Below, one piece after another: positions 8,632-46,160 of a stretch of 64,000 nt of DNA; within the stretch, counting starts at the first letter, position 1; each line of letters starts with the position of its first letter. A model generated the notes under the pieces. That model saw nothing but the letters and a program-made list of their open reading frames with translations. It searched no databases and was not told the origin of the DNA. A program made the position numbers and the translations under genes. Source of the stretch: a virus; IMG/VR virus record IMGVR_UViG_3300042868_005761, positions 32,001-96,000 of that record; one strand, given 5' to 3'.

Positions 8632-9702
8632 ATGGAATCTAATAATTACTCTGCTTCTCGAGAAGTGGAATTCGTTGATATTGTTGTTGGGCTTGCTTGG
8701 GGTGATGAAGGCAAAGGCAAGGTTGTTAGCTCACTTGTTGACTACCAGCATTATGACTTTGTCTGTCGCTTTAACGGCGGCCCTAATGCAGGTCATACTG
8801 TTTACTTGGATGGTAAGCAGTACAAGACCCACCTTATCCCTAGCGGAGTATTCCACGGTGTTCCCAGCATCATTGGTCCTGCTTGCGTAATCAATGTTAG
8901 CAAGTTCATGGCAGAGATTGCCTATCTAGAAGCTAATGGGTTTGATACGAGTCTTGTTAAGGTTTCACCTAAGGCTCATGTAATTACTCAGGATCACATT
9001 AGCTATGACACTAATTATCTTTCACATCTTGGTACTACCGGACAAGGTATTGCTCCGTGTTATTCAGACAAGATGTTGCGTAAAGGAATTCGTGCGGCTG
9101 AAATGCTTGATCCTAAGTGGATCTGGGATGAGCAACTTTTTGGTTGCATTCTTGCAGAAGGTGCACAGAGCGTTTGGTTAGATATTGATCATGGATCATA
9201 CCCATACGTTACTAGCAGCTCTACTCTGCCATATAATGCTTGTTCTCTTGGCTTTTCGCCTAGAGACATCTATAAAATTATTGGCGTTGGTAAGATGTAC
9301 GATACTAAGAGTGGTGCTGATCCTATGTTTCCTGTTAGCCTAATGACTGATCCAGTTCTTGCTGAGATTGGCAGGCTTGGAAAGGAGCAAGGTACAACTA
9401 CTGGACGTCAAAGAATTGTTAATTATCTTAATCTTGATAAGATGATTGCTGCAATTCGTTTGTCTGGTGTAACTAATGTTGTAATTAACAAGGGCGATAT
9501 TCTTAATAAGATTGAGGATGGGAATCCATTCAAGTTTTATTATCAGAATGAGCTTGTTGTCTGCCGAGCGCTTAAGCAAATGCAGGATACTATTGCAGGA
9601 ATTATTGAAAGAGAATGTCCTAATCTTCTACAGGAAGAGGTGATTTTCTCTGATCATCCAGAAATTGTTAATTGGGAGGAATATTTTCCATGGAACAAGT
9701 AG
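8632..9702 (+). CDS. purA: Adenylosuccinate synthetase (canonical PurA, short form)
   Basis: WGDEGKGK with catalytic Asp retained, GGPNAGHT, GTTGQGIAP, EGAQ, YPYVTSS, GTTTGRQR, NKGD; RBS before ATG 8632. Confidence 0.9.
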   Translation: MESNNYSASREVEFVDIVVGLAWGDEGKGKVVSSLVDYQHYDFVCRFNGGPNAGHTVYLDGKQYKTHLIPSGVFHGVPSIIGPACVINVSKFMAEIAYLEANGFDTSLVKVSPKAHVITQDHISYDTNYLSHLGTTGQGIAPCYSDKMLRKGIRAAEMLDPKWIWDEQLFGCILAEGAQSVWLDIDHGSYPYVTSSSTLPYNACSLGFSPRDIYKIIGVGKMYDTKSGADPMFPVSLMTDPVLAEIGRLGKEQGTTTGRQRIVNYLNLDKMIAAIRLSGVTNVVINKGDILNKIEDGNPFKFYYQNELVVCRALKQMQDTIAGIIERECPNLLQEEVIFSDHPEIVNWEEYFPWNK

Positions 9703-10838
9703 AAACTACTGATGATGCTGTAACTAATTACTTTTTGCCTACCCTTTATAAGAAAGTAAATGGCAATAAGATTGAGGAATGGACTATTGCCGTCTTAGGT
9801 AATGGTTCATTCTACACAACAAGTGGGCATATTGATGGTGTTAAAACTACCAGTAAGCCTACTCTTTGTGAGCCAATGAATGTTGGCAAGAAAAATGCGA
9901 CTACTGCTGCTGATCAAGCTGCAAAGGAAGCAAAGGCTAAATGGGATAAGCAGATCAAGAAAGGCTACACTGAGACTGTCGAGAACGTAGATGAGGCTCT
10001 ACCTTACCAGGTAATGCTCGCTAAGAACTACGATGACTACGCAGATGACATTACTTGGCCTGCTTATACTCAGCCTAAGCTAGATGGCATTCGGTGCCGG
10101 ATCAATAAGGATGGTATGTGGACTAGAAACAATGAAAAGATTGTATCATGTCCTCATATTAATACAGCACTTGCTTCATTCTTTGAGAAGTGTCCGGATG
10201 TCCAGCTAGATGGCGAGCTTTACAATCATGAATTTAAGGATAACTTTAATAAGATTGTAGAACTTGTTAAGCGCCAGAAGATTGACGATGCTCAACTTGC
10301 TGAAAGCAAGAAGTATATTCAATTCTGGTGTTACGACAATATGGTAAGTGGTAACTTCATTGACCGCCTTAAGTTCTTTAAGCAATACAATACGTTTGGT
10401 ATGAAACTGATCGACATGAAATATGTCACAACAGTTGAAACACACACTGTAAATAGCCAGGAAGAAGTCCAGGCTAAGCTTACTGCATATCTTAAGGAAG
10501 GATATGAAGGTCTTATGCTTAGAAGAAATACTGCTTATGAGAATAAGCGAAGTAAGAATCTTCTAAAGCTTAAGAAGTTTATCGATAGCGAGTATGAGAT
10601 TGTTAACGTTGTTGAGGGCGAGGGGAACAAGTCTGGCATGGCTGGGGCATTTACCCTGGTCATGTCAGACGGTCGCCACTTTAATAGTAATATTATGGGT
10701 CCTCATGACTATCTTGTGAGACTATGGGAGAACAAAGATTCACTTATAGGTAAGCAGGTAACTATTCAATATTTCAATCTCACCCCTGATGGGGTACCTA
10801 GGTTTCCATATGCGAAAGCATTAAGAGACTACGAATAA
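9690..10838 (+). CDS. ATP-dependent DNA ligase with N-terminal extension
   Basis: Motif I KLDGIR, LDGELY, EGLMLR, LLKLKK, PRFP. Confidence 0.92.
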   Translation: MEQVETTDDAVTNYFLPTLYKKVNGNKIEEWTIAVLGNGSFYTTSGHIDGVKTTSKPTLCEPMNVGKKNATTAADQAAKEAKAKWDKQIKKGYTETVENVDEALPYQVMLAKNYDDYADDITWPAYTQPKLDGIRCRINKDGMWTRNNEKIVSCPHINTALASFFEKCPDVQLDGELYNHEFKDNFNKIVELVKRQKIDDAQLAESKKYIQFWCYDNMVSGNFIDRLKFFKQYNTFGMKLIDMKYVTTVETHTVNSQEEVQAKLTAYLKEGYEGLMLRRNTAYENKRSKNLLKLKKFIDSEYEIVNVVEGEGNKSGMAGAFTLVMSDGRHFNSNIMGPHDYLVRLWENKDSLIGKQVTIQYFNLTPDGVPRFPYAKALRDYE

Positions 10839-10850
10839 AGGAAATAATTT

Positions 10851-11246
10851 ATGGAGTATAACCTCAGTAAGAAAGAACTAGGATATATTCGAGTTGCTAT
10901 TAAACAAGCTAGACGATCCAGTTATGAAAGGTTCTGCCATGGCGCAGTCCTCATTAAGGGTGGTACAATCATTAGTACCGGTTTTAACACGGTCAAAGGT
11001 TCCCCATTCCTAAAGCATAACTTCCCGAATAGCTTGAGAGATACAATGCACGCTGAGATGACATGTCTACATGGATTCCCTACTAGCGACCTTAGTGGTG
11101 CTAGCTTGTATGTAGTTAGGGTTCAACCTAACACTCTTGAGCTTAAGAATAGTAAGCCTTGTGCGCTCTGCGAAGAGCTCATTAGCTGGTATCCTTTGAA
11201 AAAGGTAATCTATTCTAATGGAGGAGGGTTGTTTAGCGCATTGTAA
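10851..11246 (+). CDS. Zn-dependent cytidine/dCMP deaminase-fold protein
   Basis: HGAVL...GFN, HAE and PCALC motifs. Confidence 0.85.
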   Translation: MEYNLSKKELGYIRVAIKQARRSSYERFCHGAVLIKGGTIISTGFNTVKGSPFLKHNFPNSLRDTMHAEMTCLHGFPTSDLSGASLYVVRVQPNTLELKNSKPCALCEELISWYPLKKVIYSNGGGLFSAL

Positions 11247-11258
11247 TACAAGGAGAAA

Positions 11259-11804
11259 ATGCTTACGAAAATACTAATGTTGCTGTCATTCTGGATTGTG
11301 CCAATGAGAAATCTCATTGAGTACGATGCGATTAAGGCAACAGACACATATCGGATCTTGGATAAATATGAATACATCTCTGATTCAGATAAATACTTAA
11401 TCTCTGATGCAATTGAAAAAACTTCAATTGACAAGAAGTTATCCAAGCAAGAAAAAGCAATTGTTCTGGCCGTCGCATTTCAAGAAAGCAGATTTACTAA
11501 AGAGGCAATCGGCTCTTCTGGTGAGTGCGGCCTGTATCAACAGATACCTAAATGGCTACCTAATAAAGAATTGCGTAAAATGAAATACAATGATGCTTGT
11601 GATCTTCTTAAGAATCCATATAGTGGAACTAGAGAGTTCATAAATACTTATAGGCACCTTGAGACACGCTACAAAGAAGATTGGCCTTGTCATTATAACC
11701 AAGGCATTATATGCGGAGCTAGAGGCTATGCTTATTTAAAGAATCATTATCGACTTAGGAGACAGTTTGAGCGTCAACAAGATAAATACGCTAAACTTAA
11801 CTAA
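11259..11804 (+). CDS. Lytic transglycosylase (SLT-like) with N-terminal hydrophobic segment
   Basis: AVAFQESRF (catalytic Glu), GLYQQ, HYNQG. Confidence 0.75.
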   Translation: MLTKILMLLSFWIVPMRNLIEYDAIKATDTYRILDKYEYISDSDKYLISDAIEKTSIDKKLSKQEKAIVLAVAFQESRFTKEAIGSSGECGLYQQIPKWLPNKELRKMKYNDACDLLKNPYSGTREFINTYRHLETRYKEDWPCHYNQGIICGARGYAYLKNHYRLRRQFERQQDKYAKLN

Positions 11805-12348
11805 TGATCAGGTTATCTGGCAAATAGTAATATGGTTCTATACTAAAGTATTAAATATTACTGATTACTTCAGTGATACACTCTTAGTTGACATGAAAGA
11901 TATTGCTTTTCCAGATACTCTAAATACTTTAGACTTAGATAAATACTATTATGATCTGAATAGCTATGCGGCTATAGAAAACTATATACAAAAAGCTCTC
12001 ATCCAACGCCAATTAACGCCACAGACACAAGAGCTAGCTATATTTTTTTATCTGCATGCTAAGTTAGGTCATAACGTAGTGTTCTATCCTGGTGAAAGTT
12101 TTAGGAAAAAGAACGTATTCCTTATAGAGGAGGAAAACACCGTCTACTATATTAAGTATGGAAACGATGCAACCTATGATTCGATAAGGAATATTGTTCT
12201 TGATCTTAGTAAAAAACATAAAATATGTCACTACAAAATATTAACTTTAGACAAAAACTTTAAGAAGACTAAAATGTTTAAACATTTTGTTTTTGATTTT
12301 TCTTGTTTGTCTGATTTGAATGACAAAACAAGACATCTAGAGGAGTAG
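11767..12348 (+). CDS. Hypothetical protein
   Basis: ORF fills the gap in the operon; start uncertain. Confidence 0.6.
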   Translation: MSVNKINTLNLTNDQVIWQIVIWFYTKVLNITDYFSDTLLVDMKDIAFPDTLNTLDLDKYYYDLNSYAAIENYIQKALIQRQLTPQTQELAIFFYLHAKLGHNVVFYPGESFRKKNVFLIEEENTVYYIKYGNDATYDSIRNIVLDLSKKHKICHYKILTLDKNFKKTKMFKHFVFDFSCLSDLNDKTRHLEE

Positions 12349-12349
12349 A

Positions 12350-12985
12350 ATGGATATAGAAAAGTTGATTGCAAGGATTAGACAAGAAAATTTGTCTAGT
12401 CTTTTGTATGGAACTAGACTTGTTGGTAATTACATTGGAATTTTTGGTCTCAAAAAGCGCCCAGATGATATTGACTTTAAAGAAACTGGTACACTTGAAG
12501 ATCTTGATATTAAAGCAAGTGTTGATAAGACTACAAAACTTATAAGGAAATCTATTCCTGGTGATTTTTGTGTTATAGCTTATCCCAGTAATTTCGCTCC
12601 TCTTGGAGATGAGAGATACGCAATTCAATATAATTATCAAATTATTGATTGTGATATATATGCCTATTTAATGTGCGCACAAGCAATTAAAGCTAATAAA
12701 CTTAAAGTTGTAGACAGCTCGTATTCTGATATTTTCTACTTTGATGGAAGATTTGTAGATCTATCTCATTACCTGCTAGACCATATACATGAGCACACAT
12801 TTTTCTTAAGTGAAAGATCGTGTCTCATTCCGTATATGTACTCTCGCAGGACTAAAGGTATTTACTCAGGAGACAATGTTGAAGACCTTTTGTTCAATTT
12901 GCCCAAGGTTGTTGGTGCTGAAAACATAAAAGATATTTTTTCGCTTATGACTATATTGTCTAATATTAACTCTAATCAAAACTAA
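12350..12985 (+). CDS. Hypothetical protein
   Basis: GAGGAG RBS, 211 aa ORF. Confidence 0.7.
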   Translation: MDIEKLIARIRQENLSSLLYGTRLVGNYIGIFGLKKRPDDIDFKETGTLEDLDIKASVDKTTKLIRKSIPGDFCVIAYPSNFAPLGDERYAIQYNYQIIDCDIYAYLMCAQAIKANKLKVVDSSYSDIFYFDGRFVDLSHYLLDHIHEHTFFLSERSCLIPYMYSRRTKGIYSGDNVEDLLFNLPKVVGAENIKDIFSLMTILSNINSNQN

Positions 12986-12999
12986 TCAAAGGATACAGA

Positions 13000-13515
13000 A
13001 TGTCAGACACAACTAATTCAAATCCCTCAGCTAATATCCGTTCTACCTCTGAGTACAATGTTACTGCTTACTGGCGCAACATTGACACTTACACCACGAC
13101 TGGCAATGATATCTTTGCTGTTCGTGCCCGTGATATTGGTCATTCATGTGGGATTTCCACTGCTCAAGTGAGCCGTGATCTTAAGATTACGACGACTGCT
13201 CTTACTAATCTTGTTCGTAATCGTAACAAGACTGATGGTAAGTTTGACAATGTCATTACGACGCTTGTGCGGGCCCGTGAGTACCGTACTCGTACTGGTA
13301 AAGTGCATCCTATGCATCGCTCACTAGTCCATGCCGTATCCACCAAGTATTCAACTCGTGTGGCTGCTGCTCTAGGTGGTATCTCACCTAGCACTGCGAG
13401 TGTCTGGACCCAGCATGAGCGTAAGGAGATCTCTCGTCGTTACGCCGAGTCTTTTCTCACTGACCTTTCTAGCATTAATCCAAACACTTTCAATACCAAA
13501 GACATTTCTAAGTAA
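13000..13515 (+). CDS. Putative DNA-binding protein with two HTH-like segments
   Basis: ARDIGHSCGISTAQVSRDL and STRVAAALGGISPSTASVW resemble HTH motifs; Arg-rich. Confidence 0.55.
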   Translation: MSDTTNSNPSANIRSTSEYNVTAYWRNIDTYTTTGNDIFAVRARDIGHSCGISTAQVSRDLKITTTALTNLVRNRNKTDGKFDNVITTLVRAREYRTRTGKVHPMHRSLVHAVSTKYSTRVAAALGGISPSTASVWTQHERKEISRRYAESFLTDLSSINPNTFNTKDISK

Positions 13516-13528
13516 TAAGGTTTGAATT

Positions 13529-13792
13529 ATGAGCCTTATACTAGCCGCTGTATTTTTTGGACTATTACTAGGTTACTCAACCTATCATACATTCACAAAA
13601 TTGCCAATGGGAGTTCAGTTCTTTTTATTTAGACATGAATTCCTATTTGACGCTGCGGTTACATTTGCAAATCTATTGTTCATAACTGGCATTTCAATGT
13701 CATTTATGGCAATAGCTGCAGGCGTAATTAGTGAATTTACTTGTTTATTCCTATTTGGTTTAAGAAAGAAACAACTATATAACACTATATAA
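13529..13792 (+). CDS. Small membrane protein
   Basis: Two or three hydrophobic stretches and a basic C-terminus. Confidence 0.7.
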   Translation: MSLILAAVFFGLLLGYSTYHTFTKLPMGVQFFLFRHEFLFDAAVTFANLLFITGISMSFMAIAAGVISEFTCLFLFGLRKKQLYNTI

Positions 13793-13800
13793 GGAGCATT

Positions 13801-14430: not shown

Positions 14431-14443
14431 ATAAAGGATATTA

Positions 14444-16242: not shown

Positions 16243-16758
16243 ATGTCTGACTACAAATACAATGGTTTACATTTAATTTATGATGCTGGCGCTAAGTCAG
16301 TGCCTTCAACTGATAGATTAAATCCTCTTAATGATCCAAGTATGGGTCATAAAGTTGTATCAGCCCTTGTAGATGCAATTGATATGACATTAATTGTTCC
16401 TCCACTTACTATAGAATTCCCACATAATAAGTGTGAACTAGAGCGAGTCCTTCAGCGCTTAAATGCTGAAGGGCTTGCTAATTCTACTACTGCCCAGTTT
16501 ATTGCTGGTGCCCTGAAAGAGCGTGCTGAGCAAACATATGGTTATAGTACGATTGCAATGATTGCAGAATCGCATATTGCATTTCATACATTTCCCGAAC
16601 AGGGATTTGTAACCGCTGATGTTTATTCATGCAAAGATTTTGATGCAAAGCTTGTTGAAGAAATATTTGACAGGATGTTCTTTCCTGGTTCAAAAGATAT
16701 TGAGAAAAGTGTTCATATGGTCCGTAGAACTTTGGACCTGTCTCGTTTCGCGGAGTAA
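16243..16758 (+). CDS. speD: S-adenosylmethionine decarboxylase-family pyruvoyl enzyme
   Basis: GLHLIYD; IAESHIAFHTFPE (E-S autocleavage site); DVYSC. Confidence 0.85.
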   Translation: MSDYKYNGLHLIYDAGAKSVPSTDRLNPLNDPSMGHKVVSALVDAIDMTLIVPPLTIEFPHNKCELERVLQRLNAEGLANSTTAQFIAGALKERAEQTYGYSTIAMIAESHIAFHTFPEQGFVTADVYSCKDFDAKLVEEIFDRMFFPGSKDIEKSVHMVRRTLDLSRFAE

Positions 16759-16760: not shown

Positions 16761-17834
16761 ATGTTTTTTAAATTTGAGGATGCGGTAGCTGCAAATTATC
16801 AGCTTGCCTATGATGATATTTTGCTTAATCAGGCTCCAGTGTCTGATATCAATAGTAGATATGGATCAAATATTAGTCCTTACCACAGGAATGAAAATGG
16901 GTATTATCAAAAGCCTTTTGATGCTTTGCCAATTGTTGCTAGTCCTATGCCAGGGATTGCCGGCCATAATTTTATGGACGCAATCACTGACTCCAGCTAT
17001 AAGCCTTTTGCAGTGTTTGCTGACAGGTTTCGCCCAGAACATGAGCTAGACGAAATGTATATGAGAGGCTGTGGCATTAGCATTGGCCTTGACTATTCAA
17101 TTGACAAGTTGCTCCATAAGGTCAGTGAGTATGAGATTGCTCACGTTCTAGTTGACATTGCTAATGGTAATCTAGACAGCATGTATGACTATCTGGTAAA
17201 GCTCCAGAACCTTCGCTTTGATGAGGGTGTCTTTATCTGGGCCGGAAACGTAACCAACGAGCTAGCTTATAGTCGCATTGCTAGTCTTTGCGATTATATT
17301 CGTGTAGGCATTGGTGGCGGTAGCGCTTGCACTACTCGTCTCAATACTGGTGTTGGCGCTGGTAATGTTACTGCACTTGCACGTTGTCATGCTGAGCGTA
17401 AGCGACTAGTCTATACATATCCTAAGGACGCCGCCGCTCCAGCTTATATTGTGGCTGACGGTGGCATCCGGAATAATGGCGATATCTGCAAGGCTCTTGC
17501 TTCAGGGGCAGATCTTGTAATGCTTGGAAAGATGTTTACTGCTACATCTGAGAGTGCCGCAGGCGCAGTACTAGACGAAAAGACTGGTATCTGGTACAAG
17601 GAATACGCAGGACTTGCTAGCTCTTTCTATAATAAGAAGAGCAGCATTGAAGGCCAGTCTGGGCTTATTCCTATGACAGAATCTGTTGTAGAGATGCTTA
17701 AAGGTATTGAAGGGAATCTTCGTAGCGCTATGAGCTATACTAATAGTCATAGCCTTATTGAGCTTCAAAACTGTACTAAACTTATTTGTTCTCCTAATAT
17801 TACCGTTGAAAATAACACTTCACTAGTGAGATAA
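16761..17834 (+). CDS. guaC: GMP reductase (IMPDH/GMPR family, GuaC-like)
   Basis: YDDILL, ASPM, VDIANG, GIGGGSACTTR, ADGGI, MLG; short flap KEYAGLAS...SIEG lacks the IMPDH Arg-Tyr dyad; no CBS domains. Confidence 0.72.
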   Translation: MFFKFEDAVAANYQLAYDDILLNQAPVSDINSRYGSNISPYHRNENGYYQKPFDALPIVASPMPGIAGHNFMDAITDSSYKPFAVFADRFRPEHELDEMYMRGCGISIGLDYSIDKLLHKVSEYEIAHVLVDIANGNLDSMYDYLVKLQNLRFDEGVFIWAGNVTNELAYSRIASLCDYIRVGIGGGSACTTRLNTGVGAGNVTALARCHAERKRLVYTYPKDAAAPAYIVADGGIRNNGDICKALASGADLVMLGKMFTATSESAAGAVLDEKTGIWYKEYAGLASSFYNKKSSIEGQSGLIPMTESVVEMLKGIEGNLRSAMSYTNSHSLIELQNCTKLICSPNITVENNTSLVR

Positions 17835-18288: not shown

Positions 18289-18830
18289 TGATTGCTAAAC
18301 ATTTTTGGCAGCTATTCCAGCCTGCCGATAGGTTTGGCACACCAATTAGTAAAACATCTATCTCAGCTTCAAGCAAGGCTAAACAGCCAGGTCTTACTGG
18401 GGTAGATTGTTTTAATTTCTTGCTTAGCAAATATAGCGCAAATCAAATCCTTAATAAGAATTCAGATTTAGATATATATATTTCTAAGGTTCTAAAGACT
18501 GATCAAATATATAGTGCTCTTGATGACTTCGGGATTGTAGGTGTATTTACACTAAGCACACTCCCTGGTCATTATAACTATGTATGGCGAGATGAACTTC
18601 ACAAGAAACCTAGTCAGAAATTCTTAATTTTTACACTAGATAGTAATATCTATTTTGTTTGGCTTTCTTTTTTACTTAGAAAACCAAAGACTTGTCCTAT
18701 TGTTACTTCTGTTCTTTTTGACAAAATTAAATCTGATTATTCAGATTTGATTACGAAGCCAGAACTAACTGATATAGATAAATTATTTATTAAAGATTTT
18801 GAACTAATCATTCCTCATGTGAATCTATGA
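18288..18830 (+). CDS. Hypothetical protein
   Basis: GTG start overlapping the previous stop. Confidence 0.6.
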   Translation: MIAKHFWQLFQPADRFGTPISKTSISASSKAKQPGLTGVDCFNFLLSKYSANQILNKNSDLDIYISKVLKTDQIYSALDDFGIVGVFTLSTLPGHYNYVWRDELHKKPSQKFLIFTLDSNIYFVWLSFLLRKPKTCPIVTSVLFDKIKSDYSDLITKPELTDIDKLFIKDFELIIPHVNL

Positions 18831-19489
18831 TCTTTGACAAAGAAAGTTTTTATTCAGCTATTGGTAGGCAAGAAATTAAAGACTGCACCAAGTGCAAGGA
18901 TTTATGTGCTTCAAGAAGCCGTGTCGTAATTGATAAGTTTACCAAAAATACAGTAGCTCCATGGGACCATAAGACTTTACCTATTCTAGTAATTGGTGAA
19001 GCTCCTGGCGAGACGGAAGATCAAGTTGGTCTTCCATTCATGGGTGTGAGTGGTAGAGTTCTTGATACTTATCTAAGGCAATATGATTTAATTGATTTGA
19101 CATATGTAACTAACATTGTTAAATGCCGACCTCATAAGAACCGAACTCCTACTCCTGAAGAGCTTTCTAATTGCAGTCCATATCTTGCTAAGCAGATTAG
19201 CAATCTAAAGCCCAAGGTAATTGTTACACTTGGTAAAAGTGCAATGGCTGGTTTAGAGATTACCGGAACAATTAAAGATCCAAAGTCTGTTGATTGGAAA
19301 AAGCCGGATGCTGTATCTTCTTTTACTCTGGATGGCCAAGACTATCCTGTTATTCCAATCTACCATCCTAGTTACTATCTTCGTCAGAAGAATGCTCTAA
19401 CAGAACAAGATTGGGAACTTTTTCAATTTAATTACTCTCATAAGTTTAAATATATTAATAATTTTATTAATGAAATCAATGACATGTAA
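18827..19489 (+). CDS. Uracil-DNA glycosylase, family 4 (Fe-S)
   Basis: CTKC, IGEAPG, KCRPHKNRTP, HPSY. Confidence 0.88.
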   Translation: MIFDKESFYSAIGRQEIKDCTKCKDLCASRSRVVIDKFTKNTVAPWDHKTLPILVIGEAPGETEDQVGLPFMGVSGRVLDTYLRQYDLIDLTYVTNIVKCRPHKNRTPTPEELSNCSPYLAKQISNLKPKVIVTLGKSAMAGLEITGTIKDPKSVDWKKPDAVSSFTLDGQDYPVIPIYHPSYYLRQKNALTEQDWELFQFNYSHKFKYINNFINEINDM

Positions 19490-22105: not shown

Positions 22106-22836
22106 TGGCTTTGCTAACACTAATAATTGCACTACTAGGTGTTGCTGGTGTTACATATACTCTTCTATCTACTCTTAATAAGATAATTAAAACAATCTAT
22201 TACTGGGAGCGAGAGATTATCTTTGTTGATTATGTCAATCCTAAGGAAATTTATATTCAATTTCCCAACGAAGCATTGACTAGCGATACTCTTTCAAAAG
22301 ATATCGAAGTAGATGATCTACATGAGAGGTTTCAATTTGCATCTAGTGAAAATGAAACTGTTTATGTTCCATATGCAAGCTTGCTAGCGGGAATTGTTGA
22401 TATCTTCTTGGGTTATAGAAATGTGATTGGAGCGCTGCAGAATGCAGAAGAAGAGTACAAGGAAGATCCAGAGGAGCTAGAGCTTTTCAAAGCTCCTAAG
22501 AAGTTTGACTTCCCTAGTCTCATGAATGGCCTCGATACCTATAACATATATACAAAATATACTTTATGGGACCTGCAAGAAGATAAAGAAATTCGCATTT
22601 CATCTGCCAGTGATTACTCTGCTTTTGTTAAGCTAGTAATTGAAAACAAGTCTAATCTTTCCTATAGAACACATTATATGGTCTATAAGAAGGTTGGTAC
22701 GAAAGAAACTGGTGAGCTTATAAGTGAATTGACTACTATCTTTAATATTGGCCAAGCTTATAATGATTTATCAAATAAAACCCCAGTAATGGATGTTACC
22801 CATTTGTCGGAGAAAAAGGATGCTGGAAAGAACTAA
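22105..22836 (+). CDS. Hypothetical protein with N-terminal membrane anchor
   Basis: Hydrophobic residues 2-24; TAATG coupling. Confidence 0.7.
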   Translation: MALLTLIIALLGVAGVTYTLLSTLNKIIKTIYYWEREIIFVDYVNPKEIYIQFPNEALTSDTLSKDIEVDDLHERFQFASSENETVYVPYASLLAGIVDIFLGYRNVIGALQNAEEEYKEDPEELELFKAPKKFDFPSLMNGLDTYNIYTKYTLWDLQEDKEIRISSASDYSAFVKLVIENKSNLSYRTHYMVYKKVGTKETGELISELTTIFNIGQAYNDLSNKTPVMDVTHLSEKKDAGKN

Positions 22837-23707
22837 TGATTTAATTCCATGTCTTGATCATGGCTATGTTAAGTTAATTGATGTTATGCCTCATGCTGAT
22901 GCAGAGGATCTTTCATTTAATACTAACATTGCTGACTATGCAATTATTGATGCTGCTAGAGTTAGTTACCAGTCAGGTACTACTCGTAAACAGTCAGACA
23001 AGCAATTGCTACGTTATCTTATGCGTCATTGGCATACTAGTCCATTTGAGATGGTAGAGTTTAAGTTCGAGATGCGCTTGCCTATCTTTGTTATGCGCCA
23101 GCTAGTTCGTCATAGGACTGCTAGCCTTAACGAGGAGAGCGCACGTTACAGTGTCATGGAAGATGTATTCTATGAACCTGATAGTCTTAGAGCTCAAAGT
23201 ACTACCAACAAGCAAGGCAGCGCTGAAGGAGAATTTAATCCCTTCATTGGTCCTAGAGAGAAAGCAACAGCAGTTATGAATCATCAGACTGATGAAGCCT
23301 ATAAGCTTTATCAACAGTTGATTGAGGCTGGTGTCAGTCGTGAACAGGCCCGCATGGTACTTCCTGTTAATCTCTATACACGTGTTGTATGGAAGTGTGA
23401 CTTGCTTAATCTTCTTAAGATGCTTAGGCTGCGCTTAGATCCTCATGCTCAGTATGAGATTCGAGTATTTGCAGAAGCAATTGCCGAATTTGTAAAGCTA
23501 CATTGTCCTTGGACTTGGGAAGCTTTCGAAGATTACTGGCAAGGTGGAGTTTCTTTTAGTAAGGTGGAACTAGATGCTTTACGCTATCTTATTCCCTTTA
23601 CTGGCAAAGAAGCTTTCAATGCAGCTATTCAAGGGACTAACTTTAGCAAAGGCGAGTTGCTAGAGTTTGAAGAGAAATTTAATAGGATTGCCAATGGGGA
23701 AAGTTAA
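22820..23707 (+). CDS. thyX: FAD-dependent thymidylate synthase
   Basis: AARVSY, HTSPFE, RHRTASLNEESARY, REQARMVLP, HAQYEIR. Confidence 0.95.
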   Translation: MLERTNDLIPCLDHGYVKLIDVMPHADAEDLSFNTNIADYAIIDAARVSYQSGTTRKQSDKQLLRYLMRHWHTSPFEMVEFKFEMRLPIFVMRQLVRHRTASLNEESARYSVMEDVFYEPDSLRAQSTTNKQGSAEGEFNPFIGPREKATAVMNHQTDEAYKLYQQLIEAGVSREQARMVLPVNLYTRVVWKCDLLNLLKMLRLRLDPHAQYEIRVFAEAIAEFVKLHCPWTWEAFEDYWQGGVSFSKVELDALRYLIPFTGKEAFNAAIQGTNFSKGELLEFEEKFNRIANGES

Positions 23708-27199: not shown

Positions 27200-29128
27200 A
27201 TGCCAGATATTGATAATTTTACAAAAGATATAGTGACACCTTGGAGCACTGTAGGCTATCTAACTTACAAGAGAACCTATGCTAGAAGGCTTACTGAAAC
27301 TGATCTTAATGGCCCAACAGAGGAATGGACTGACACCGTAGATCGTGTCCTTAATGCTAGTGATAAGCAGCTTAAGGTGGGTTTTACGGCCTATGAGAAA
27401 GCTAGGCTTAGGACTTATATGCTTGAACTTAAGGGTACCGTTGCTGGCCGCTTTCTGTGGCAGCTAGGCACTAGAACTGTTAAGGACCTAGGTCTTCCTA
27501 GCTTACAGAACTGTGCCTTTACTGTCGTCGACGGACCTGTTCGTCCATTCACTTGGACAATGGATATGCTTATGCTTGGTTGTGGCGTTGGCTACAATAT
27601 TCAGCGTGAGCACATTAATAAACTTCCTAAAGTTCGTAAGAACTTTAAAAGCCCAACAAGAAGAGACCAGGGAGACTCTGACTTCATTGTGTCTGACACA
27701 AGAGAAGGTTGGGTTGCACTATTAGCTAAGACTCTTAAGGCTGCATTCCTCGCAGACAAGAAGAATACATTTACATTTAGCACTCAGCTAATCCGTGGTA
27801 AGGGCGCGCCAATCAAAGGCTTTGGTGGTGTAGCTAGCGGTCCTGAGATTTTATGTGAAGGTATAGCTAATATTGGTAAGGTTTTAGAGAAGCGCGCTGG
27901 TAAGCAATTACGCAGTGTTGATTGTCTAGATATCATGAACATTATTGGCAGCATTGTAGTTGCTGGTAACGTACGACGTAGCGCGCAGATTGCCATTGGC
28001 GACTGTGACGACATCGAGTTCTTACTTGCTAAACGTTGGGATTTGGGCACCATTCCCAGCTGGCGTGCAATGTCTAATAACAGTGTTGCTTGCGATGACA
28101 TCAATGATCTTCCAGATATGTTTTGGGATGGATATGAAGGCAAGGGAGAGCCTTATGGTCTAATCAACCTTAAGCTTTCACGCGCTATGGGCCGCCTTGG
28201 TGAAACAGAGTATCCTGATCCTGCTGTCATGGGTTACAACCCTTGTGCAGAACAGAGCCTTGCTAACTTTGAGACTTGCTGTCTTGCAGAAGTATTCCTT
28301 CCGAATATAACAAGTGCCGCTGAATTGGCTGATGTATGTAAACTACTTTACCGTATTAACAAGCATAGCTTGGCTTTACATTGTCATCACTCAGAGACAG
28401 AAGAGATTGTTAATAAGCATATGCGTATGGGTATTGGTATCACTGGATATCTTCAAGCTACAGATGAACAAAAGTCTTGGCTCAGGGATGCTTATGGCGA
28501 GCTTCGGGCTTACGATGTTGAGTATAGCGCTGCAAAGGGATTCCCTGTTAGCGTTAAACTTACTACCGTAAAGCCTAGCGGTACACTTAGTTTGCTTCCT
28601 GGTGTTACACCAGGTGCACATCCTGCTTATGCTAGACATCTTATTCGTCGTATTCGTATTGCTGCTAATCATCCATTGATTGAAGTAGTGCGTTCACACA
28701 ATTATAAGATTGAGTATCAGGAAAACTTTGACGGTAGCCTCGACTATTCAACTATGGTAGCTGAGTTTCCATTCTCTTACCCAGAAGGTACACTTCTAGC
28801 TAGGGACATGACAGCTCTTGATCAGCTTGCAGTTGTTAAAAGACTACAGGAAGACTGGTCAGACAACAGTGTATCTTGCACTATCTACTATAGGAAAGAA
28901 GAACTTGATCAGGTTAAAGAATATCTTCGTGAGAACTATACTTTAAATCATAAGAGTCTTTCATTCTTATTACATTCTGAGCATGGTTTTAAGCAAGCCC
29001 CTCTTGAAGAAATCACAGAAGATGTCTATAATGAACTGGTTAGAACAACTAAGCTAATCGATGGTATTTCATTTGACGCGAGTGTTGACTCTAGCGATTG
29101 CGAAGGTGGATTCTGTCCTGTCAAGTAG
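27200..29128 (+). CDS. nrdJ: Class II (B12-dependent) ribonucleotide reductase, monomeric RTPR type
   Basis: TYKRTYAR, AGRFLW, LQNCAF, GNVRRSA, NPCAEQSL, TVKPSGT; C-terminal DCEGGFCPVK. Confidence 0.95.
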   Translation: MPDIDNFTKDIVTPWSTVGYLTYKRTYARRLTETDLNGPTEEWTDTVDRVLNASDKQLKVGFTAYEKARLRTYMLELKGTVAGRFLWQLGTRTVKDLGLPSLQNCAFTVVDGPVRPFTWTMDMLMLGCGVGYNIQREHINKLPKVRKNFKSPTRRDQGDSDFIVSDTREGWVALLAKTLKAAFLADKKNTFTFSTQLIRGKGAPIKGFGGVASGPEILCEGIANIGKVLEKRAGKQLRSVDCLDIMNIIGSIVVAGNVRRSAQIAIGDCDDIEFLLAKRWDLGTIPSWRAMSNNSVACDDINDLPDMFWDGYEGKGEPYGLINLKLSRAMGRLGETEYPDPAVMGYNPCAEQSLANFETCCLAEVFLPNITSAAELADVCKLLYRINKHSLALHCHHSETEEIVNKHMRMGIGITGYLQATDEQKSWLRDAYGELRAYDVEYSAAKGFPVSVKLTTVKPSGTLSLLPGVTPGAHPAYARHLIRRIRIAANHPLIEVVRSHNYKIEYQENFDGSLDYSTMVAEFPFSYPEGTLLARDMTALDQLAVVKRLQEDWSDNSVSCTIYYRKEELDQVKEYLRENYTLNHKSLSFLLHSEHGFKQAPLEEITEDVYNELVRTTKLIDGISFDASVDSSDCEGGFCPVK

Positions 29129-39536: not shown

Positions 39537-39540
39537 CAAT

Positions 39541-39613
39541 TCTGGCTTAGCTCAGTAGGTAGAGCAAGGGACTGTTAATCCCTGGGTCACAGGTTCGAAT
39601 CCTGTAGCCAGAG
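39541..39613 (+). tRNA. tRNA-Asn(GTT)
   Basis: Acceptor TCTGGCT/AGCCAGA; anticodon arm AGGGA-CT-GTT-AA-TCCCT; G73 discriminator. Confidence 0.93.
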
Positions 39614-39640
39614 CTGATTATCTATATTTTAAGGAAAACA

Positions 39641-40822: not shown

Positions 40823-41903
40823 CAACTCGGTAGTTAGTCTGAATACATTAGTTCCTAAGAAAACAAGGAACTATACACTCAGTCTTGAGCCTCGAATCTC
40901 TGACTCTTCTTCTGTAATCTATGGAATGGAAAAGGATAGTATTGCTTATCTTAGCGACTACATTAAAAACCATCCTAGAATGAAAGATGCCGAGATGCAT
41001 CGTCTTGCTTGTAAATACTTCTACTTGAAGCAGCAGTATACACATTTAAAAGACCGCTTAGGTGCTGTTGAACTTAAACTAGAATCACCCAATGACGCTA
41101 TAACAACTAGTCTTTTAGTTGCCGAGAAAGAAGAGTTATCTTATCTTCTAGAATTAATTCCATACAAGGAAGTTTTTCTAGAACTAGAAGAGACTCTAGT
41201 CGCACATAATCTTCGTTTGATAGTGAAAATTGCAAGTAGCTATGGCGGTAAAGGATTATCTGTCGATGACCTAATACAAGAAGGTGTCTTTGGGTTTATG
41301 TATGCAATAGATAGATATGACCCAAACAAAAACGTTAAACTCGGAACATATGCGACTTGGTGGATTAAGCAGAAGATTACTCGTGCTTTGTCTAATAAAG
41401 CTAGATTAATTCGCTTGCCAGTCCATCTAACAATTGATATAACTAAAGTCCTTGGAGCAATACGGAAACATAATATTCCTTACTCTAGTAAGAATATTGG
41501 TAAACTTTCTAACCTTACCAGGATGAAAGAGTCAAGTGTTTCTCATGCCTTTGGTTATATTTATAGCTATACACCATACAATCAGATTGCCTTATACAAT
41601 AATGATCAGGCATTTTCTGAAGATCCGATGACACTTATAGTGGACAAGGAAAAGAAAGATGAACAAATCGAAGATGTAAATTTGAACTTAGATCAAAAAA
41701 CTTTTTGTTCTAATTTCTCTTCGGTAATTGACAAATTGAATACTCTTGAACAAGAGTTCATCTATAGAAAATATGGTATTCAAGGCTACAATGAGCATAC
41801 TCCAATTGAAATAAGAGAATGGCTTAAGAGTGTTAATATTAAACAACCTATCTTTTTTAAGAAAACTGTTCTTATAAAGATAGCTACTGAAATACTAAAA
41901 TAG
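40806..41903 (+). CDS. RNA polymerase sigma-70-family factor
   Basis: HNLRLIVKIA, DLIQEG, TYATWWIKQKITRAL, RLIRLPVH; degenerate region 4. Confidence 0.88.
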   Translation: MKKTNSNSVVSLNTLVPKKTRNYTLSLEPRISDSSSVIYGMEKDSIAYLSDYIKNHPRMKDAEMHRLACKYFYLKQQYTHLKDRLGAVELKLESPNDAITTSLLVAEKEELSYLLELIPYKEVFLELEETLVAHNLRLIVKIASSYGGKGLSVDDLIQEGVFGFMYAIDRYDPNKNVKLGTYATWWIKQKITRALSNKARLIRLPVHLTIDITKVLGAIRKHNIPYSSKNIGKLSNLTRMKESSVSHAFGYIYSYTPYNQIALYNNDQAFSEDPMTLIVDKEKKDEQIEDVNLNLDQKTFCSNFSSVIDKLNTLEQEFIYRKYGIQGYNEHTPIEIREWLKSVNIKQPIFFKKTVLIKIATEILK

Positions 41904-41911
41904 AGGAATGT

Positions 41912-44461
41912 ATGATTACGAATCTGAGTGAGTTAGTAGAAACAATTGATAGAATCCCAGTCTCTCAGTACCTTGAGAAGATTGGTGTTGAGGTTACAAA
42001 GAATAAGAAAGTTGTCTGTGTCAATCCAGACCATGACGACCATAATCCTAGTATGCATGTTTACGATGACCGTGGATATGTAAAGTGTTTTAGTTGCGGC
42101 TTTTATGGTAGTTCTTTGAACGTCCACGCAATTAGAACTGGCCGGCAACTTGCTGGTGATGAGTTTGTTGATGTTGCTAAGGAAGTAGCAGATCTATTTG
42201 CTATTGACTATAACTTTGGCAAGCCAAGCCCAGAGGAAATCGAGCGTCAAAAGTATTTTCAAGTATATCATGAGGTCTCCTCATCTATTACCAAGATTAC
42301 TGATACTGCTCACCCAGATTTGTATAAGTACATTGCAGAGCGCTCATGGAATGCAGATAAGCTGCTTGAAATGGGCGTTGGCTATGTAGAGATTGGAGAT
42401 GGGCTTACTGTACTAGATAAGCTAAGAGAAGAGCGTCCTGACCAGGGATTCGGCATTTATGACACAAGTATGTTTGCCGATCCTCAGAACAAACTAGTAA
42501 CCACATTCTATGACGAGAAGGGCAGAACCGTTGGCTTTGCAGCTCGTAAGATTACTTGGCAAAAAGGCGACAAGGATAAGTGGGTAAACACTAGTGGCAT
42601 TGTTCCAATCTTTGATAAGAGCAACCTGCTTTATAATCATAAGATTGCCAAGCAAGCTATTAAGGCAGGAGCTGATACTCTGTATGTCTTTGAAGGTCAG
42701 AGTAGTGCAATTACTTGTTACCATAACGGCCTTAAAGCTGCTGTGGCAGCAGGTGGTTCTAGTCTAACTCCCGGTCAAGCTAGACTTCTTAAGAATCTTA
42801 ATCCTAGTAAGTATGTACTTTGCTTTGACCCTGATGATGCAGGTATTAAATGCACCATCAATGCCATTAGAGAACATGCTAGCACTCTAGGCGGCCATAA
42901 GCTTTATGTTAAAGATCTTCGTGTTAACGGCGATCTTGACCCAGATGAGTTTATCAGAGCTAATGACATTGAAGTATTCAAGACTGTTGAGAATGTTCCT
43001 GCTTTTGACTGGCTTTTCGGTGAGCTAACTAGAGAGAATGGATCCCGCGAGGTTATGCTTGATCTTATTAAGCTTATCTCTAGCTTCCATAGTCCTCTGG
43101 AGCGAGAAGATCTAGCTCGTAGTCTTAGTATGAAGACTGGTTACAGCTTCAATACTATTACTGAAGAGATTGATAATATTGTAAATGAGAAGGAACTTAC
43201 TCAGAAGCAGAAGGTAAAAGACCTTACTGATCAGGCTATGCTTGATATCCGTAAGAATCCTACCAGTGCTATCTCAGTTCTTGATGGTCTTAGAACCAGG
43301 ATTGAGAGCATTCAGGCTGATACTAATACCAGTGTTAGCAGCGGTGACTTCTATCTTCAAGAGATGCTTCGTTTTCAAGATGAGGCAGAAGCTTTCGAGG
43401 CTGTGTTCCCTGGCTTCCAAATGCCACTCATGCCCGGATTTGCCAGCGCATTTAACAATGACTGGTCAAGAGGTCGCATGATTTGTATTGGCGGCGAAGA
43501 GAATGCAGGTAAGAGTTCATTCAGTAGTTTTACATGTTACAACTTAGCACTACCAGAAGCTGACAACAATCTTCATGTTCTTTACATGACTATTGACGAT
43601 AGCGTTCCTGAGTTGTTTCCTAAGTTTGTAGCTATGGCTGGTCGTCATCGTACTCGTGGTTATCGCGGATATGAGGATGGCTTTCCTTTAGAGATCAACC
43701 ATATCGTTCGTCCTAAGTATTGGGGCAAGATCCTTAGGGATATTGATCCCCAGCTAGAGCAAGATATGCTTTATGCTTACAAGGTTGGCTATCAAGAGAT
43801 TATGAAGATGGCCCGCGAAGAACGTCTAGTGCTTTTCGGCATTCCACATGCCCAGAACCTAGAAGACTTTGAGCGTGCTATTGCTAGCTTCCGCAAGAAG
43901 TATCCTAGCGATAACATCTTTGCTTACTTGGATAATATCCATAAGCTTCCACTTGGTAACGCTGATGCACGTCTTGCATTCAAGGATATCTCTAATCGCG
44001 TTAAGATGGCTTCAGTCCGTCACAACATTGCTATTGGCGGTACCCTAGAATACAACAGCGACTCGAATAAGAGGCAGAAGGATCAGCGCCCGACTAACTC
44101 TAGCCTAGCAGAGTCTCGTGCCTTTAGATACGACGCTAGCGCCATTGTACACGTTTATAATCATAAGCATGTATTTGGTGATAAGAGTAACTGGTACCAT
44201 GAGACTAAGAGCGTTAGCCGTCCTGGTGTAGTCCAGAAGTTCCCAGTCATCGAAGCAATCATTGGCAAGAACAAGATCTCAGGTGACAAAGACACTCACT
44301 GTTTCCTATTTCATCCTACGAGTTCTTGGTTCGAAGAAGTTGACACCTATGAGATTGCTCAGGTTGTCAATGCCAGAGACCAGGCTGATGATAAGAACAA
44401 CAAAGACTATGCCAAGAAAGAAGATGTTGACGTCTGGGCTTTAGAGGATGACGATGCCTAG
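41912..44461 (+). CDS. Fused DNA primase-helicase (CHC2 zinc finger, TOPRIM, DnaB-like)
   Basis: CVNPDH...CFSC, GFAAR, FEG, FDPDDAG, DPDE; GGEENAGKS, LDNIH, KNK. Confidence 0.9.
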   Translation: MITNLSELVETIDRIPVSQYLEKIGVEVTKNKKVVCVNPDHDDHNPSMHVYDDRGYVKCFSCGFYGSSLNVHAIRTGRQLAGDEFVDVAKEVADLFAIDYNFGKPSPEEIERQKYFQVYHEVSSSITKITDTAHPDLYKYIAERSWNADKLLEMGVGYVEIGDGLTVLDKLREERPDQGFGIYDTSMFADPQNKLVTTFYDEKGRTVGFAARKITWQKGDKDKWVNTSGIVPIFDKSNLLYNHKIAKQAIKAGADTLYVFEGQSSAITCYHNGLKAAVAAGGSSLTPGQARLLKNLNPSKYVLCFDPDDAGIKCTINAIREHASTLGGHKLYVKDLRVNGDLDPDEFIRANDIEVFKTVENVPAFDWLFGELTRENGSREVMLDLIKLISSFHSPLEREDLARSLSMKTGYSFNTITEEIDNIVNEKELTQKQKVKDLTDQAMLDIRKNPTSAISVLDGLRTRIESIQADTNTSVSSGDFYLQEMLRFQDEAEAFEAVFPGFQMPLMPGFASAFNNDWSRGRMICIGGEENAGKSSFSSFTCYNLALPEADNNLHVLYMTIDDSVPELFPKFVAMAGRHRTRGYRGYEDGFPLEINHIVRPKYWGKILRDIDPQLEQDMLYAYKVGYQEIMKMAREERLVLFGIPHAQNLEDFERAIASFRKKYPSDNIFAYLDNIHKLPLGNADARLAFKDISNRVKMASVRHNIAIGGTLEYNSDSNKRQKDQRPTNSSLAESRAFRYDASAIVHVYNHKHVFGDKSNWYHETKSVSRPGVVQKFPVIEAIIGKNKISGDKDTHCFLFHPTSSWFEEVDTYEIAQVVNARDQADDKNNKDYAKKEDVDVWALEDDDA

Positions 44462-45203
44462 AATCTCTGCACCCATTGATGATCTAGTTGATACAGGTAA
44501 AAAACTTCGTGCTCTTAACGTGAATCAATTAGTTAGCTTTATGAGGTGCGGAGAGTATTTTAGGAATGAGATACTCGATCGTGTTGTTGCTTGGGATTTC
44601 TCTAAGGATCCATATAGTTTACTACTACACCATTTAATGGTATATGTTTTAAATTATTATGGAAAGAAAGGAGATTTCCCAAGTGACACCGACATAGTCC
44701 TAAGATTTTCGATAGCTCAAAATCTTTTGAAGAAAGCAGGGAATAGTTTTATTTTTCATAATAAAAATAATGATATTCTTTTCTCTATATTCAAATGGAG
44801 ATCTTACTTAAAAGAACTTTCAATTACTGATGTCAATCATATTGAGTTCTATGAAAGCTCAGGGGTAACAGTTAATTTTGCTATTCCTTTAATTACTGAA
44901 AAAGCTATCTATTTATTTAGTTTTTTCCCTAAAAAGGAATTCATTAAAACACCTTACTTCCACTTACCATTGCTAAAGCATTGGAATAAGAAAATATATA
45001 TTGTATATTTGAGTGGATCTAATTATAATATAGAGAATTTCACAGATAAAGATATTGATCTGAGGAAATTAAATAGCGTATACGCGAGTACACTTTTTGC
45101 TTACAAGAAAAATGTTTACTTGCCAATTTTTAATTGTAAATTACAAACATGTCCATTGTATACAAAATGCAATAGCATGTATTCAGATAGCAAGGAGAGC
45201 TAA
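44448..45203 (+). CDS. Hypothetical protein, possibly a degenerate Cas4-like Fe-S protein
   Basis: N-terminal SFMRC and C-terminal CKLQTCPLYTKC; no D..ExK motif seen. Confidence 0.5.
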   Translation: MTMPRISAPIDDLVDTGKKLRALNVNQLVSFMRCGEYFRNEILDRVVAWDFSKDPYSLLLHHLMVYVLNYYGKKGDFPSDTDIVLRFSIAQNLLKKAGNSFIFHNKNNDILFSIFKWRSYLKELSITDVNHIEFYESSGVTVNFAIPLITEKAIYLFSFFPKKEFIKTPYFHLPLLKHWNKKIYIVYLSGSNYNIENFTDKDIDLRKLNSVYASTLFAYKKNVYLPIFNCKLQTCPLYTKCNSMYSDSKES

Positions 45204-45577
45204 TGGAACCCATTGACTTTGATAATCCTGTTACTGCTATTCAACCAGCAACAGATAGCCTAGACGCCCCCAGAACAAGACGCATATACGGCGATGAAGC
45301 TAATATGCTAAGAATGCATAATGCATATAGACCTAATCCAGGTGGCAAGTACGATATTGACCGTCTCTATCGCAAGAGAGCAGAGTACGAACTAAGACAA
45401 TTGCAAAACGCAATTTTCAAAGAGAGGACTCTATACTGCGAAGAGAATGGAATTTCATTTATGGATTTCCAAAGTCAAGCTGCCGAAGACCCTTCAGTTA
45501 TGGAGACTTTATACGCAAGAGCAATAGTCAAGATCCCAAGAACCTGCAAGACAATTCTTGGAAACAATTATAAGTAA
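45203..45577 (+). CDS. Hypothetical protein
   Basis: AAGGAG RBS, TAATG coupling. Confidence 0.7.
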   Translation: MEPIDFDNPVTAIQPATDSLDAPRTRRIYGDEANMLRMHNAYRPNPGGKYDIDRLYRKRAEYELRQLQNAIFKERTLYCEENGISFMDFQSQAAEDPSVMETLYARAIVKIPRTCKTILGNNYK

Positions 45578-45599
45578 TATTTAATTTATTGAGGTAAAG

Positions 45600-46160
45600 A
45601 TGTCAGATTATATTTATGTTTTAGCAACAAACAGAGACACTGCTAATTTGATGACAGCTAAGATGTCTTCTAATTACGAAGCTAAAACACTTGATTTATT
45701 TTTCAATATTCCAGATAATTTTCTTCTGCTTGGCAGACAGAATAGCGAAGATCAATTAACTTATATGATTCCACTTGGATTCAAGACTTACGCTCCACAT
45801 GGTGCGGATATGCTTCTACTTCCTAGGAGTAGCTCTGGTAATCTACGTAAGCTTGCTCCGACTATAGATGACCCTCCTTACCTTGAGGCTTGTAAAAATG
45901 CTAATATTAAAGTCTTTGATGCAGATGCAATTCATCTATCCAACACAATGGGCTACATTGATTGGGATTATAGAAACGAATGGCAGTCTTTAGTCTATGT
46001 AGATAGAGACTTCAGGGTTGACTCTAATAGGGCCTATCTTCAAGCTATTCCGATGGAGCCTACTAAGTTTTCATTTAAACTTGTAGATGATATTAGTCAG
46101 ATCCCTAAAGAGTATCTTAATACTCAAAGAGGAGAGAATGGATTTGGTAGTTCAGGCTAA
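45600..46160 (+). CDS. dut: Trimeric dUTPase
   Basis: PRSS, GYIDWDYR, C-terminal RGENGFGSSG. Confidence 0.85.
   Translation: MSDYIYVLATNRDTANLMTAKMSSNYEAKTLDLFFNIPDNFLLLGRQNSEDQLTYMIPLGFKTYAPHGADMLLLPRSSSGNLRKLAPTIDDPPYLEACKNANIKVFDADAIHLSNTMGYIDWDYRNEWQSLVYVDRDFRVDSNRAYLQAIPMEPTKFSFKLVDDISQIPKEYLNTQRGENGFGSSG

Follow-up and report, generated by a model that had tools for sequence, protein, structure and literature searches.

How does a phage that is richer in A+T than its host obtain its dATP and dTTP? Phages are usually slightly more AT-rich than their hosts, some by 20-35 points, and to our knowledge the supply of dATP and dTTP to AT-rich phages in GC-rich cells is understood for the pyrimidines only, on the T4 model. 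The purine side of this question is raised by a stretch of 64,000 nucleotides (the window) that comprises bases 32001-96000 of a single viral record, IMGVR_UViG_3300042868_005761 (176,231 bp), from an uncultured phage. The window encodes a protein resembling GMP reductase (GMPR, bacterial GuaC), called ORF16761 here, together with a short adenylosuccinate synthetase (PurA). CheckV rates the full record, of 40.3% GC, as complete. Megablast of 22 kb of the window against 50,697 GenBank phage records, the set that was also queried with canonical GuaC (see below), found no match and no close relative; near-identical 174-kb contigs are present in IMG/VR.

A sequence-only reading had described a kit at 8632-46160 of the window that converts the G/C nucleotides of a GC-rich host into A/T. 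Every gene that it named is present, but the genes are interspersed among others and do not form a discrete system, and that range does not include TilS or the majority of the tRNAs. Its interpretation is partly supported: on balance, we think it probable that the gene set shifts nucleotide pools from G/C to A/T for a 40% GC genome in which the third codon positions of late genes reach only 23-26% GC. In kind, this is an auxiliary nucleotide metabolism of phages that draws on the textbook interconversion of purines.

How would such a set work? The GMPR-like enzyme would convert GMP, for example from degraded host RNA, to IMP by reduction and deamination, and the short PurA would use IMP, aspartate and GTP to make adenylosuccinate, from which host PurB would release AMP for kinases to raise to ATP. 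A class II ribonucleotide reductase (RNR) of the triphosphate type (RTPR), predicted to reduce NTPs directly to dNTPs, would turn ATP into dATP. Both the GMPR-like and the PurA steps would drain guanylates. In a parallel pyrimidine branch, dCMP deaminase and dUTPase would supply dUMP for conversion to dTMP by ThyX, with a uracil-DNA glycosylase (UDG) as an accessory that would keep uracil out of DNA. TilS and eight phage tRNAs would serve the A-ending, AT-rich codons that late genes use heavily. The pathway steps are one-way by established biochemistry; from the sequences we infer the substrates, the net direction of flux and a host richer in G+C than the phage.

Pairing of reductase and short PurA genes in viral contigs

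Is the company of the two purine genes peculiar to this phage? An alignment of short PurAs was used to scan IMG/VR, yielding 502 contigs that encode a short PurA. Pairing was counted at the best 80 of these loci with 10-kb flanks, and PurA loci were grouped into determinable clusters at 85% PurA identity. A GMPR-family gene is also carried at 50 of the 80 loci, at a distance from PurA of 0.4-7.1 kb (median 1.6 kb). At loci that are not kin of the window it lies upstream of PurA, on the same strand in 41 of 46 cases, and of the 49 loci whose upstream sequence extends for 6 kb or more (close kin of the window left out), 37 have it. Counted by cluster, it stands beside PurA in 22 of 29. The link between GuaC and PurA that had been proposed from the window alone thus has strong comparative support, and the idea, based on reference phages, that the pairing is unique to the window clade was overturned by the scan.

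The partner is not always the same enzyme. Canonical GuaC accompanies PurA in 15 clusters (full-length matches are 53-59% identical to the E. coli enzyme), a type that we call P0037 in six, and the window type in one. The P0037-type enzyme branches on the side of IMP dehydrogenase (IMPDH), yet has a short flap without the Arg-Tyr (RY) dyad. Because the partner belongs to one of three reductase subfamilies, the pairing has been assembled with non-orthologous reductases. That a single viral PurA family associates with such different partners is the best available evidence on the role of ORF16761, and suggests that it feeds IMP to PurA. Several contigs with the pair have the gene for a T4-type major capsid protein, which is missing from the window lineage. 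One compact arrangement places dCMP deaminase, reductase and PurA inside 3.6 kb (locus L091), and relatives with 63% identity in the reductase keep the order SPL-PurA-ligase-deaminase...GuaC...ThyX. In the window lineage the reductase is the older resident of the two.

The proposed chemistry is that of the E. coli guaC, purA and purB branch, with the same first two reactions and the same catalytic residues, but here it is phage-encoded, PurA has ~330-356 aa, PurB was not found, and the window reductase belongs to a virus-only clade. The reference phages offer a second comparison. In the AT-rich lytic phages Cr30, XacN1, Xoo-sp13, RAS14, CM1 and phiYS40 a GMPR-family gene sits amid those for dCMP deaminase, thymidylate synthase and RNR, and phiYS40 additionally has AdoMetDC, ThyX and dUTPase, as the window phage does. 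These phages differ from it in that those checked have no PurA, that the phiYS40 enzyme forms a long branch, and that the window enzyme lies in another clade. A full-text literature search found no description of a phage guaC-purA route. What is new here is a two-gene form that lacks PurB and has a compact PurA, present in the window phage, in T4-like contigs and in other IMG/VR contigs; new as well are the non-orthologous reductase partners and the limitation of canonical GuaC to phages with a large GC gap.

These observations invite a broader proposal, which we put forward only tentatively: GMPR and short PurA may constitute a widespread, undescribed phage module, the purine counterpart of the dCMP-deaminase/thymidylate-synthase route, for AT-rich lytic phages in hosts richer in G+C. 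It would have been assembled several times with three reductase subfamilies, and the window and P0037 types would be virus-specific GMP reductases.

Base composition, codon usage and host

If the route serves to bridge a difference in base composition, its carriers should show one. GMPR-family genes occur among the reference phages in phiYS40/TMA (32.5% GC at the phiYS40 locus), Cr30 (38.0%), Xoo-sp13 (39.3%), RAS14/CM1 (42.3% in RAS14), XacN1 (49.7%), Mel-JY01 (35.4%), phage G (29.8%), Lak phages (26.6% in Lak-C1) and the crAss-like cr108_1 (36.8%). The hosts concerned include Thermus thermophilus with ~69% GC, Caulobacter crescentus with ~67%, and Xanthomonas and Stenotrophomonas with ~64-66%. 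A query with canonical GuaC retrieved, as whole phage genomes, only XacN1, Xoo-sp13, CM1, RAS14 and Cr30, the other records being host contigs or fragments. This suggests that, among cultured phages, only AT-rich ones whose hosts have 64-67% GC carry canonical GuaC, across a gap between phage and host of 15-29 points. Phage GC normally follows host GC closely (R = 0.90, slope 0.88; PMC5989581), which makes the GuaC carriers outliers.

The window phage itself shows a three-step gradient of codon usage, in which use of ATA, AAA, TTA and AGA climbs as GC at third codon positions (GC3) falls, in step with the set of phage tRNAs. The first 20 kb of the genome have a GC3 of 0.59, and the four codons make up 3-7%, 17-19%, 1% and ~10% of their respective families. 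Between 20 and 80 kb GC3 is 0.33-0.36 and usage is intermediate; in the structural blocks at 80-140 and 160-176 kb GC3 is 0.23-0.28 and the shares reach 29-38%, 49-72%, 29-34% and 59-76%. The pattern suggests that early genes suit a host preferring G/C-ending codons, with TilS and the phage tRNAs serving the late genes, and that host GC is about 50% or higher; a myxobacterium with 65-70% is not required.

Who might this host be? A high-GC and probably myxobacterial one had been proposed. Codon usage and tRNAs speak for the higher GC; for the myxobacterial part, matches to family models were sub-threshold. One window gene encodes a secreted, Cys-rich protein with SGCSV, a transmembrane helix and RRR at its C-terminus, and its three nearest ESM-Atlas clusters all come from Myxococcota (MYXO-CTERM/MXAN_6627.5-like; 0.82-0.84, short of 0.9). 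Models for the MYXO-CTERM sorting domain and myxosortase families (NCBIfam, Pfam) gave only sub-threshold matches, of 15.2 and 12.5 bits, and a myxobacterial host is a weak lead. Homologues of the SPL protein with 50-56% identity are scattered over metagenome-assembled genomes of Bdellovibrionia, Caldilineaceae, Acidobacteriota and Chlamydiales, and carry no host signal as a result. The tRNA-Leu intron and split DnaE had raised the idea of a cyanophage; a search of 17 contigs with a PurA gene, one of them a close relative, found no psbA, which does not settle the question.

Do these genes act together, or does each simply add to supply? PurA and the reductase could be independent boosters that raise adenylate and ATP and salvage the guanylates of degraded host RNA, beside a standard kit of pyrimidine genes and with no tuning to a GC gap. 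This would fit the dispersal of the nucleotide genes among replication genes, the seven PurA clusters without a nearby reductase, the 69 other viral GMPR-like loci with no PurA nearby, and the presence of GMPR-like genes in phages of AT-rich hosts (phage G, host ~38% GC; Mel-JY01) and in a pelagimyophage (PMC7029224). Further points weigh against a concerted shift from G to A. In the window 7 kb separates the PurA and reductase genes, which do not share an operon, and relatives at 42-44% identity keep the reductase beside AdoMetDC or DHFR with no PurA in the flanks. PurA was found in none of nine checked reference phage records with a GuaC-like gene. PurB was not found in this genome, nor in any of 17 sampled related PurA contigs, and the route consequently depends on the host. 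PurA itself lies below its equivalog cutoff (NF002223, 257 bits against 402), matching in two stretches. As to composition, that host GC exceeds that of the phage is suggested by early-gene codon usage and the tRNA set, the comparison spans few lineages (perhaps three for canonical GuaC), and AT-richness is a general tendency of large phages (PMC5989581); for the last two reasons the composition pattern is only suggestive and no controlled test. On the other hand, the chemistry from G to A runs one way regardless of its purpose, the carriers are AT-rich throughout, and canonical GuaC in cultured phages is found solely where the gap is 15-29 points. Independent boosting is in our view unlikely, and a joint shift of nucleotide pools toward A/T is the account that we retain.

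Assignment of the enzymes

Is ORF16761 a GMP reductase? In a sequence search of the PDB its best match is Bacillus anthracis GuaC (1YPF, 97 bits), followed by human GMPR2 and GMPR1, with 84.7 bits for the highest-scoring IMPDH. It was aligned with E. coli GuaC, staphylococcal GuaC, five cellular IMPDHs and phage homologues, and a quick IQ-TREE tree was built. The catalytic Cys loop reads GGGSACTTR (Cys-Thr-Thr) and, like a second motif, SIEGQ, is conserved across the clade. The Thr and Glu required for deamination are there as well, as expected of the (beta/alpha)8 barrel of the IMPDH/GMPR superfamily. So are the EG motif and, within DGGI, the Asp that contacts the ribose hydroxyls, and DIANG is present as in type-1 GuaC, where IMPDHs have AHGH. 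The flap, YKEYAGLASSFYNKKSSIEG (YKEY.G.AS...EG), has 49 aa, resembles that of Firmicute GuaC and contains no Arg-Tyr dyad; the flaps of the five cellular IMPDHs have 63-72 aa, with the catalytic DRY in four of them. No CBS/Bateman domain was found in ORF16761. The earlier description of a GuaC-like reductase without the Arg-Tyr flap of IMPDH is borne out, and the assignment as an IMP dehydrogenase (GuaB) is ruled against by the missing dyad and CBS domain.

Could the enzyme be a virus-specific member of the superfamily with another substrate, such as a deoxynucleotide, XMP or a modified purine, perhaps working with the AdoMetDC-like gene directly upstream, whose position is kept even in relatives of only 44% identity? 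ORF16761 falls in a separate clade of 18 members, all metagenomic (SH-aLRT 99), outside the E. coli-type GuaC, the Staphylococcus-type GuaC and IMPDH. Its scores of 121.5, 120.0, 104.1 and 103.6 bits are all under the GuaC cutoffs of 397, 344, 492 and 466 (NF003470, NF003966 and TIGR01305/6). The predicted fold (AlphaFold, pLDDT 86.7) fits IMPDH and GMPR equally (VIA-align Z of 36.6 for IMPDH, 35.0 for GMPR1 and 34.3 for GuaB3), and the top 50 Foldseek matches of the model are IMPDH catalytic domains only. All three observations count against the assignment as GuaC. With the three folds within 2.3 Z units, structure was dropped as a discriminator between GMPR and IMPDH. Three features nevertheless fit GMPR, namely the Cys loop, the flap and the Asp that contacts ribose, and the neighbour of PurA in other viral clusters is canonical GuaC, 53-59% identical to the E. 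coli enzyme. We consider a different substrate quite improbable; the architecture of ORF16761 appears GMP-reductase-like, in a protein outside the strict GuaC family as judged by cutoffs and clade.

For PurA the earlier term canonical does not hold, as this is a short form, although one with all catalytic residues. The start at ATG 8632 matches relatives of 356 aa. It contains the P-loop GDEGKGK, which includes Asp13, as well as His41, Gln224, TTTGRQR (Thr300/301, Arg303/305) and the guanine-specificity motif NKGD, and the catalytic residues are invariant across 18 viral family members. Relative to the ~430 aa of bacterial enzymes it is without ~55-60 internal residues, between 157 and 220, and ~30 C-terminal ones. 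The compact architecture is shared with Pyrococcus horikoshii PurA (PDB 2D7U/5K7X), with a collinear alignment that lacks the large bacterial insert; such short archaeal enzymes are active. In sequence, however, the window PurA is nearer to bacterial than to archaeal PurA (184 against 118 bits), and the viral family is its own clade. At least 8,000 scored candidates in a large protein collection match the short PurA, and the best 120 of them are mostly of 328-337 aa, with 55-69% identity. A long branch separates E. coli PurA from the viral PurAs, which all fall into one clade; within it the window PurA is closest to one neighbouring a canonical GuaC. A Lake Baikal study reported viral-fraction transcripts resembling Pithovirus PurA (PMC9611531).

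Might the two enzymes serve to remove guanylates and not to feed DNA synthesis? The pair could deplete guanine nucleotides (GTP, ppGpp, guanine signals) for host shutdown or the blunting of defence, and by established chemistry both steps consume guanylates while PurA also burns GTP. Yet the genes are linked to those for deaminase, thymidylate synthase and RNR, not to anti-defence genes, and guanylate depletion leaves the AT-rich carriers unexplained; we rate this as very improbable. There is next to no chance that the PurA homologue is of the PurZ type, making 2-aminoadenine (Z) DNA, and this reading was rejected: phrog_1211 labels the family '2-aminooxy adenylosuccinate synthetase' and the window PurA matches PurZ structures weakly, but it retains the defining Asp13, where all 147 phage PurZ/PurZ0 sequences examined carry Ser (PMC12884076), it scores 95 bits on the PurZ model NF038379 (cutoff 300) against 257 on PurA models, and DatZ, DUF550 and MazG (PF12917, PF04447, PF03819) were not found in a search of the whole genome. 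PurZ/PurZ0 of the Z-genome phages S-2L, phiVC8 and Archimedes have the same fold and are likewise short; PurZ differs in having Ser for Asp13, in acting on dGMP, and in being accompanied by DatZ/MazZ or DutZ/DmtZ, none of which was found for the window phage.

The pyrimidine branch of the proposed shift toward A/T can be followed through the small deaminase. In its family H67, E69, P103, C104 and C107 do not vary. The first matches of a profile built from 80 members are 4P9C (cyanophage S-TIM5), 1VQ2 (T4 Cd), 2HVV (Streptococcus mutans) and 2W4L (human), all dCMP deaminases, with TadA next at ~7 bits less; the AF2 model (pLDDT 95) finds dCMP deaminases as its top Foldseek matches in the same order. 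The protein is thus probably a dCMP deaminase with a cytosine nucleotide as substrate, in line with the role first given to it. The calls of ThyX, an RTPR-like class II RNR, dUTPase, TilS and the tRNAs hold as well. T4 has an AT-biasing set of dCMP deaminase (Cd), thymidylate synthase and dUTPase-dCTPase, and the C-to-T branch of the window follows the same logic with homologues. The window phage differs in having ThyX in place of ThyA, a very small deaminase and an extra purine counterpart, from G to A, that is absent from T4. The pyrimidine branch is ordinary for large phages.

Gene layout and wider meaning

The genes of the set are dispersed over a 38-kb replication arm, in no single operon, among genes for SPL, ligase, UDG, RecA, PhoH, split DnaE, a sigma factor and a primase-helicase. 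Being spread through this arm, they amount to a functional set and not to a compact locus. Their positions are collected below, with three further genes mentioned in the text.

Table 1. Nucleotide-metabolism, tRNA and associated genes of the window, with the matches on which each assignment rests.
Feature	Position	Strand	Evidence
TilS, tRNA-Ile lysidine synthetase, short form (224 aa), N-terminal catalytic domain only	3520..4194	+	TIGR02432 127.7 bits, cutoff 93.6
tRNA, anticodon CAT, probably tRNA-Ile2 (AUA-reading after lysidine modification)	4254..4328	+	ARAGORN, Rfam
tRNA-Lys(TTT), tRNA-Pro(TGG), tRNA-Thr(TGT)	4349..4590	+	ARAGORN, Rfam
tRNA-Leu(TAA) with 688-nt intron; HNH ORF inside (6266-6751)	6126..6896	+	ARAGORN, intron option
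tRNA-Tyr(GTA)	6903..6985	+	ARAGORN, Rfam
SPL-family radical SAM gene	7565..8623		TIGR03886 410.6 bits, cutoff 437.55
Short adenylosuccinate synthetase PurA (356 aa)	8632..9702	+	PF00709 264 bits
Small Zn deaminase (131 aa; ORF10851), probably dCMP deaminase	10851..11246	+	PF00383, phrog_174; CDA fold, HAE/PCxxC
AdoMetDC-like gene	16243..16758		phrog_3125; PF02675 in relatives; TIGR03330 49.9 bits, below cutoff
GMP-reductase-like ORF16761, IMPDH/GMPR superfamily (357 aa)	16761..17834	+	PF00478 138.7 bits
Family-4 uracil-DNA glycosylase	18827..19489	+	PF03167 105 bits; TIGR00758 121.9 bits, cutoff 125.3
ThyX, flavin-dependent thymidylate synthase	22793..23707	+	TIGR02170 195.4 bits, cutoff 87.9; RHRTAS motif
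Class II (B12-dependent) RNR, triphosphate-reducing RTPR type	27200..29128	+	TIGR02505 328.8 bits, cutoff 340.05; PF21995, PF17975
tRNA-Asn(GTT)	39541..39614	+	ARAGORN, Rfam
Divergent trimeric dUTPase	45600..46160	+	phrog_135 50.9 bits; motifs 2, 3, 5
Secreted Cys-rich protein	48480..49025		ESM-Atlas clusters (see text)

Some assignments call for comment. The tRNA with anticodon CAT lies 60 nt 3' of TilS, has C4-G69 and shows no initiator features, which makes Ile2 its probable identity. The tRNA-Leu was detected by ARAGORN only if introns were permitted and is split after position 35; its intron scores 25.3 bits on the Rfam model Intron_gpI, under the gathering score of 50, and the ORF inside matches the Pfam family of HNH endonucleases. 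The dUTPase falls below the curated NCBIfam dut cutoffs (32.5 against 103), with PRSS as motif 2, GYIDWDYRNE as motif 3 and RGENGFGSS as motif 5.

The neighbourhood of the reductase is partly conserved. The AdoMetDC-like gene stops 3 nt before it, an adjacency seen also in L015, L047 and L048, and in the Thermus phage phiYS40 an AdoMetDC gene is likewise near the GMPR-like gene. The UDG gene sits two genes 3' of the reductase, a position kept in the relatives L014, L015, L047 and L048. L047, a syntenic relative (44% identity in the GuaC-like protein), carries just 3' of the deaminase a gene (2858-4336; PF00152 + PF01336) for an Asp/Asn/Lys-type aminoacyl-tRNA synthetase of class II; its flank showed no SPL-PurA-ligase block such as stands ahead of the deaminase in the window. 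L049 has an IS605 OrfB/Cas12f-like TnpB gene (12221-13540) ~8 kb from the GMPR-like gene.

GMPR-family relatives are encoded on 456 IMG/VR contigs. The 69 more distant loci without PurA in their flanks (L131-L198) include many giant-virus bins (GVMAG), with 21-41% GC and a median of 27.6%. Elsewhere the gene keeps company with pyrimidine metabolism: it overlaps the end of DHFR by 4 nt in L012 (9516-11062) and the end of thymidylate synthase by 8 nt in the unrelated crAss-like lineage of cr108_1 (L024, 6905-9005), and a thymidylate synthase lies 2-8 kb from it in phage G, XacN1, RAS14 and Xoo-sp13.

What would the pairing mean for phages of this kind? If true, a one-way route from G to A encoded by the phage would be the missing purine half of the supply of dATP and dTTP. 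It would also offer a composition-based clue to the hosts of uncultured phages, and it would define two unassayed branches of the IMPDH/GMPR superfamily and a compact viral PurA.

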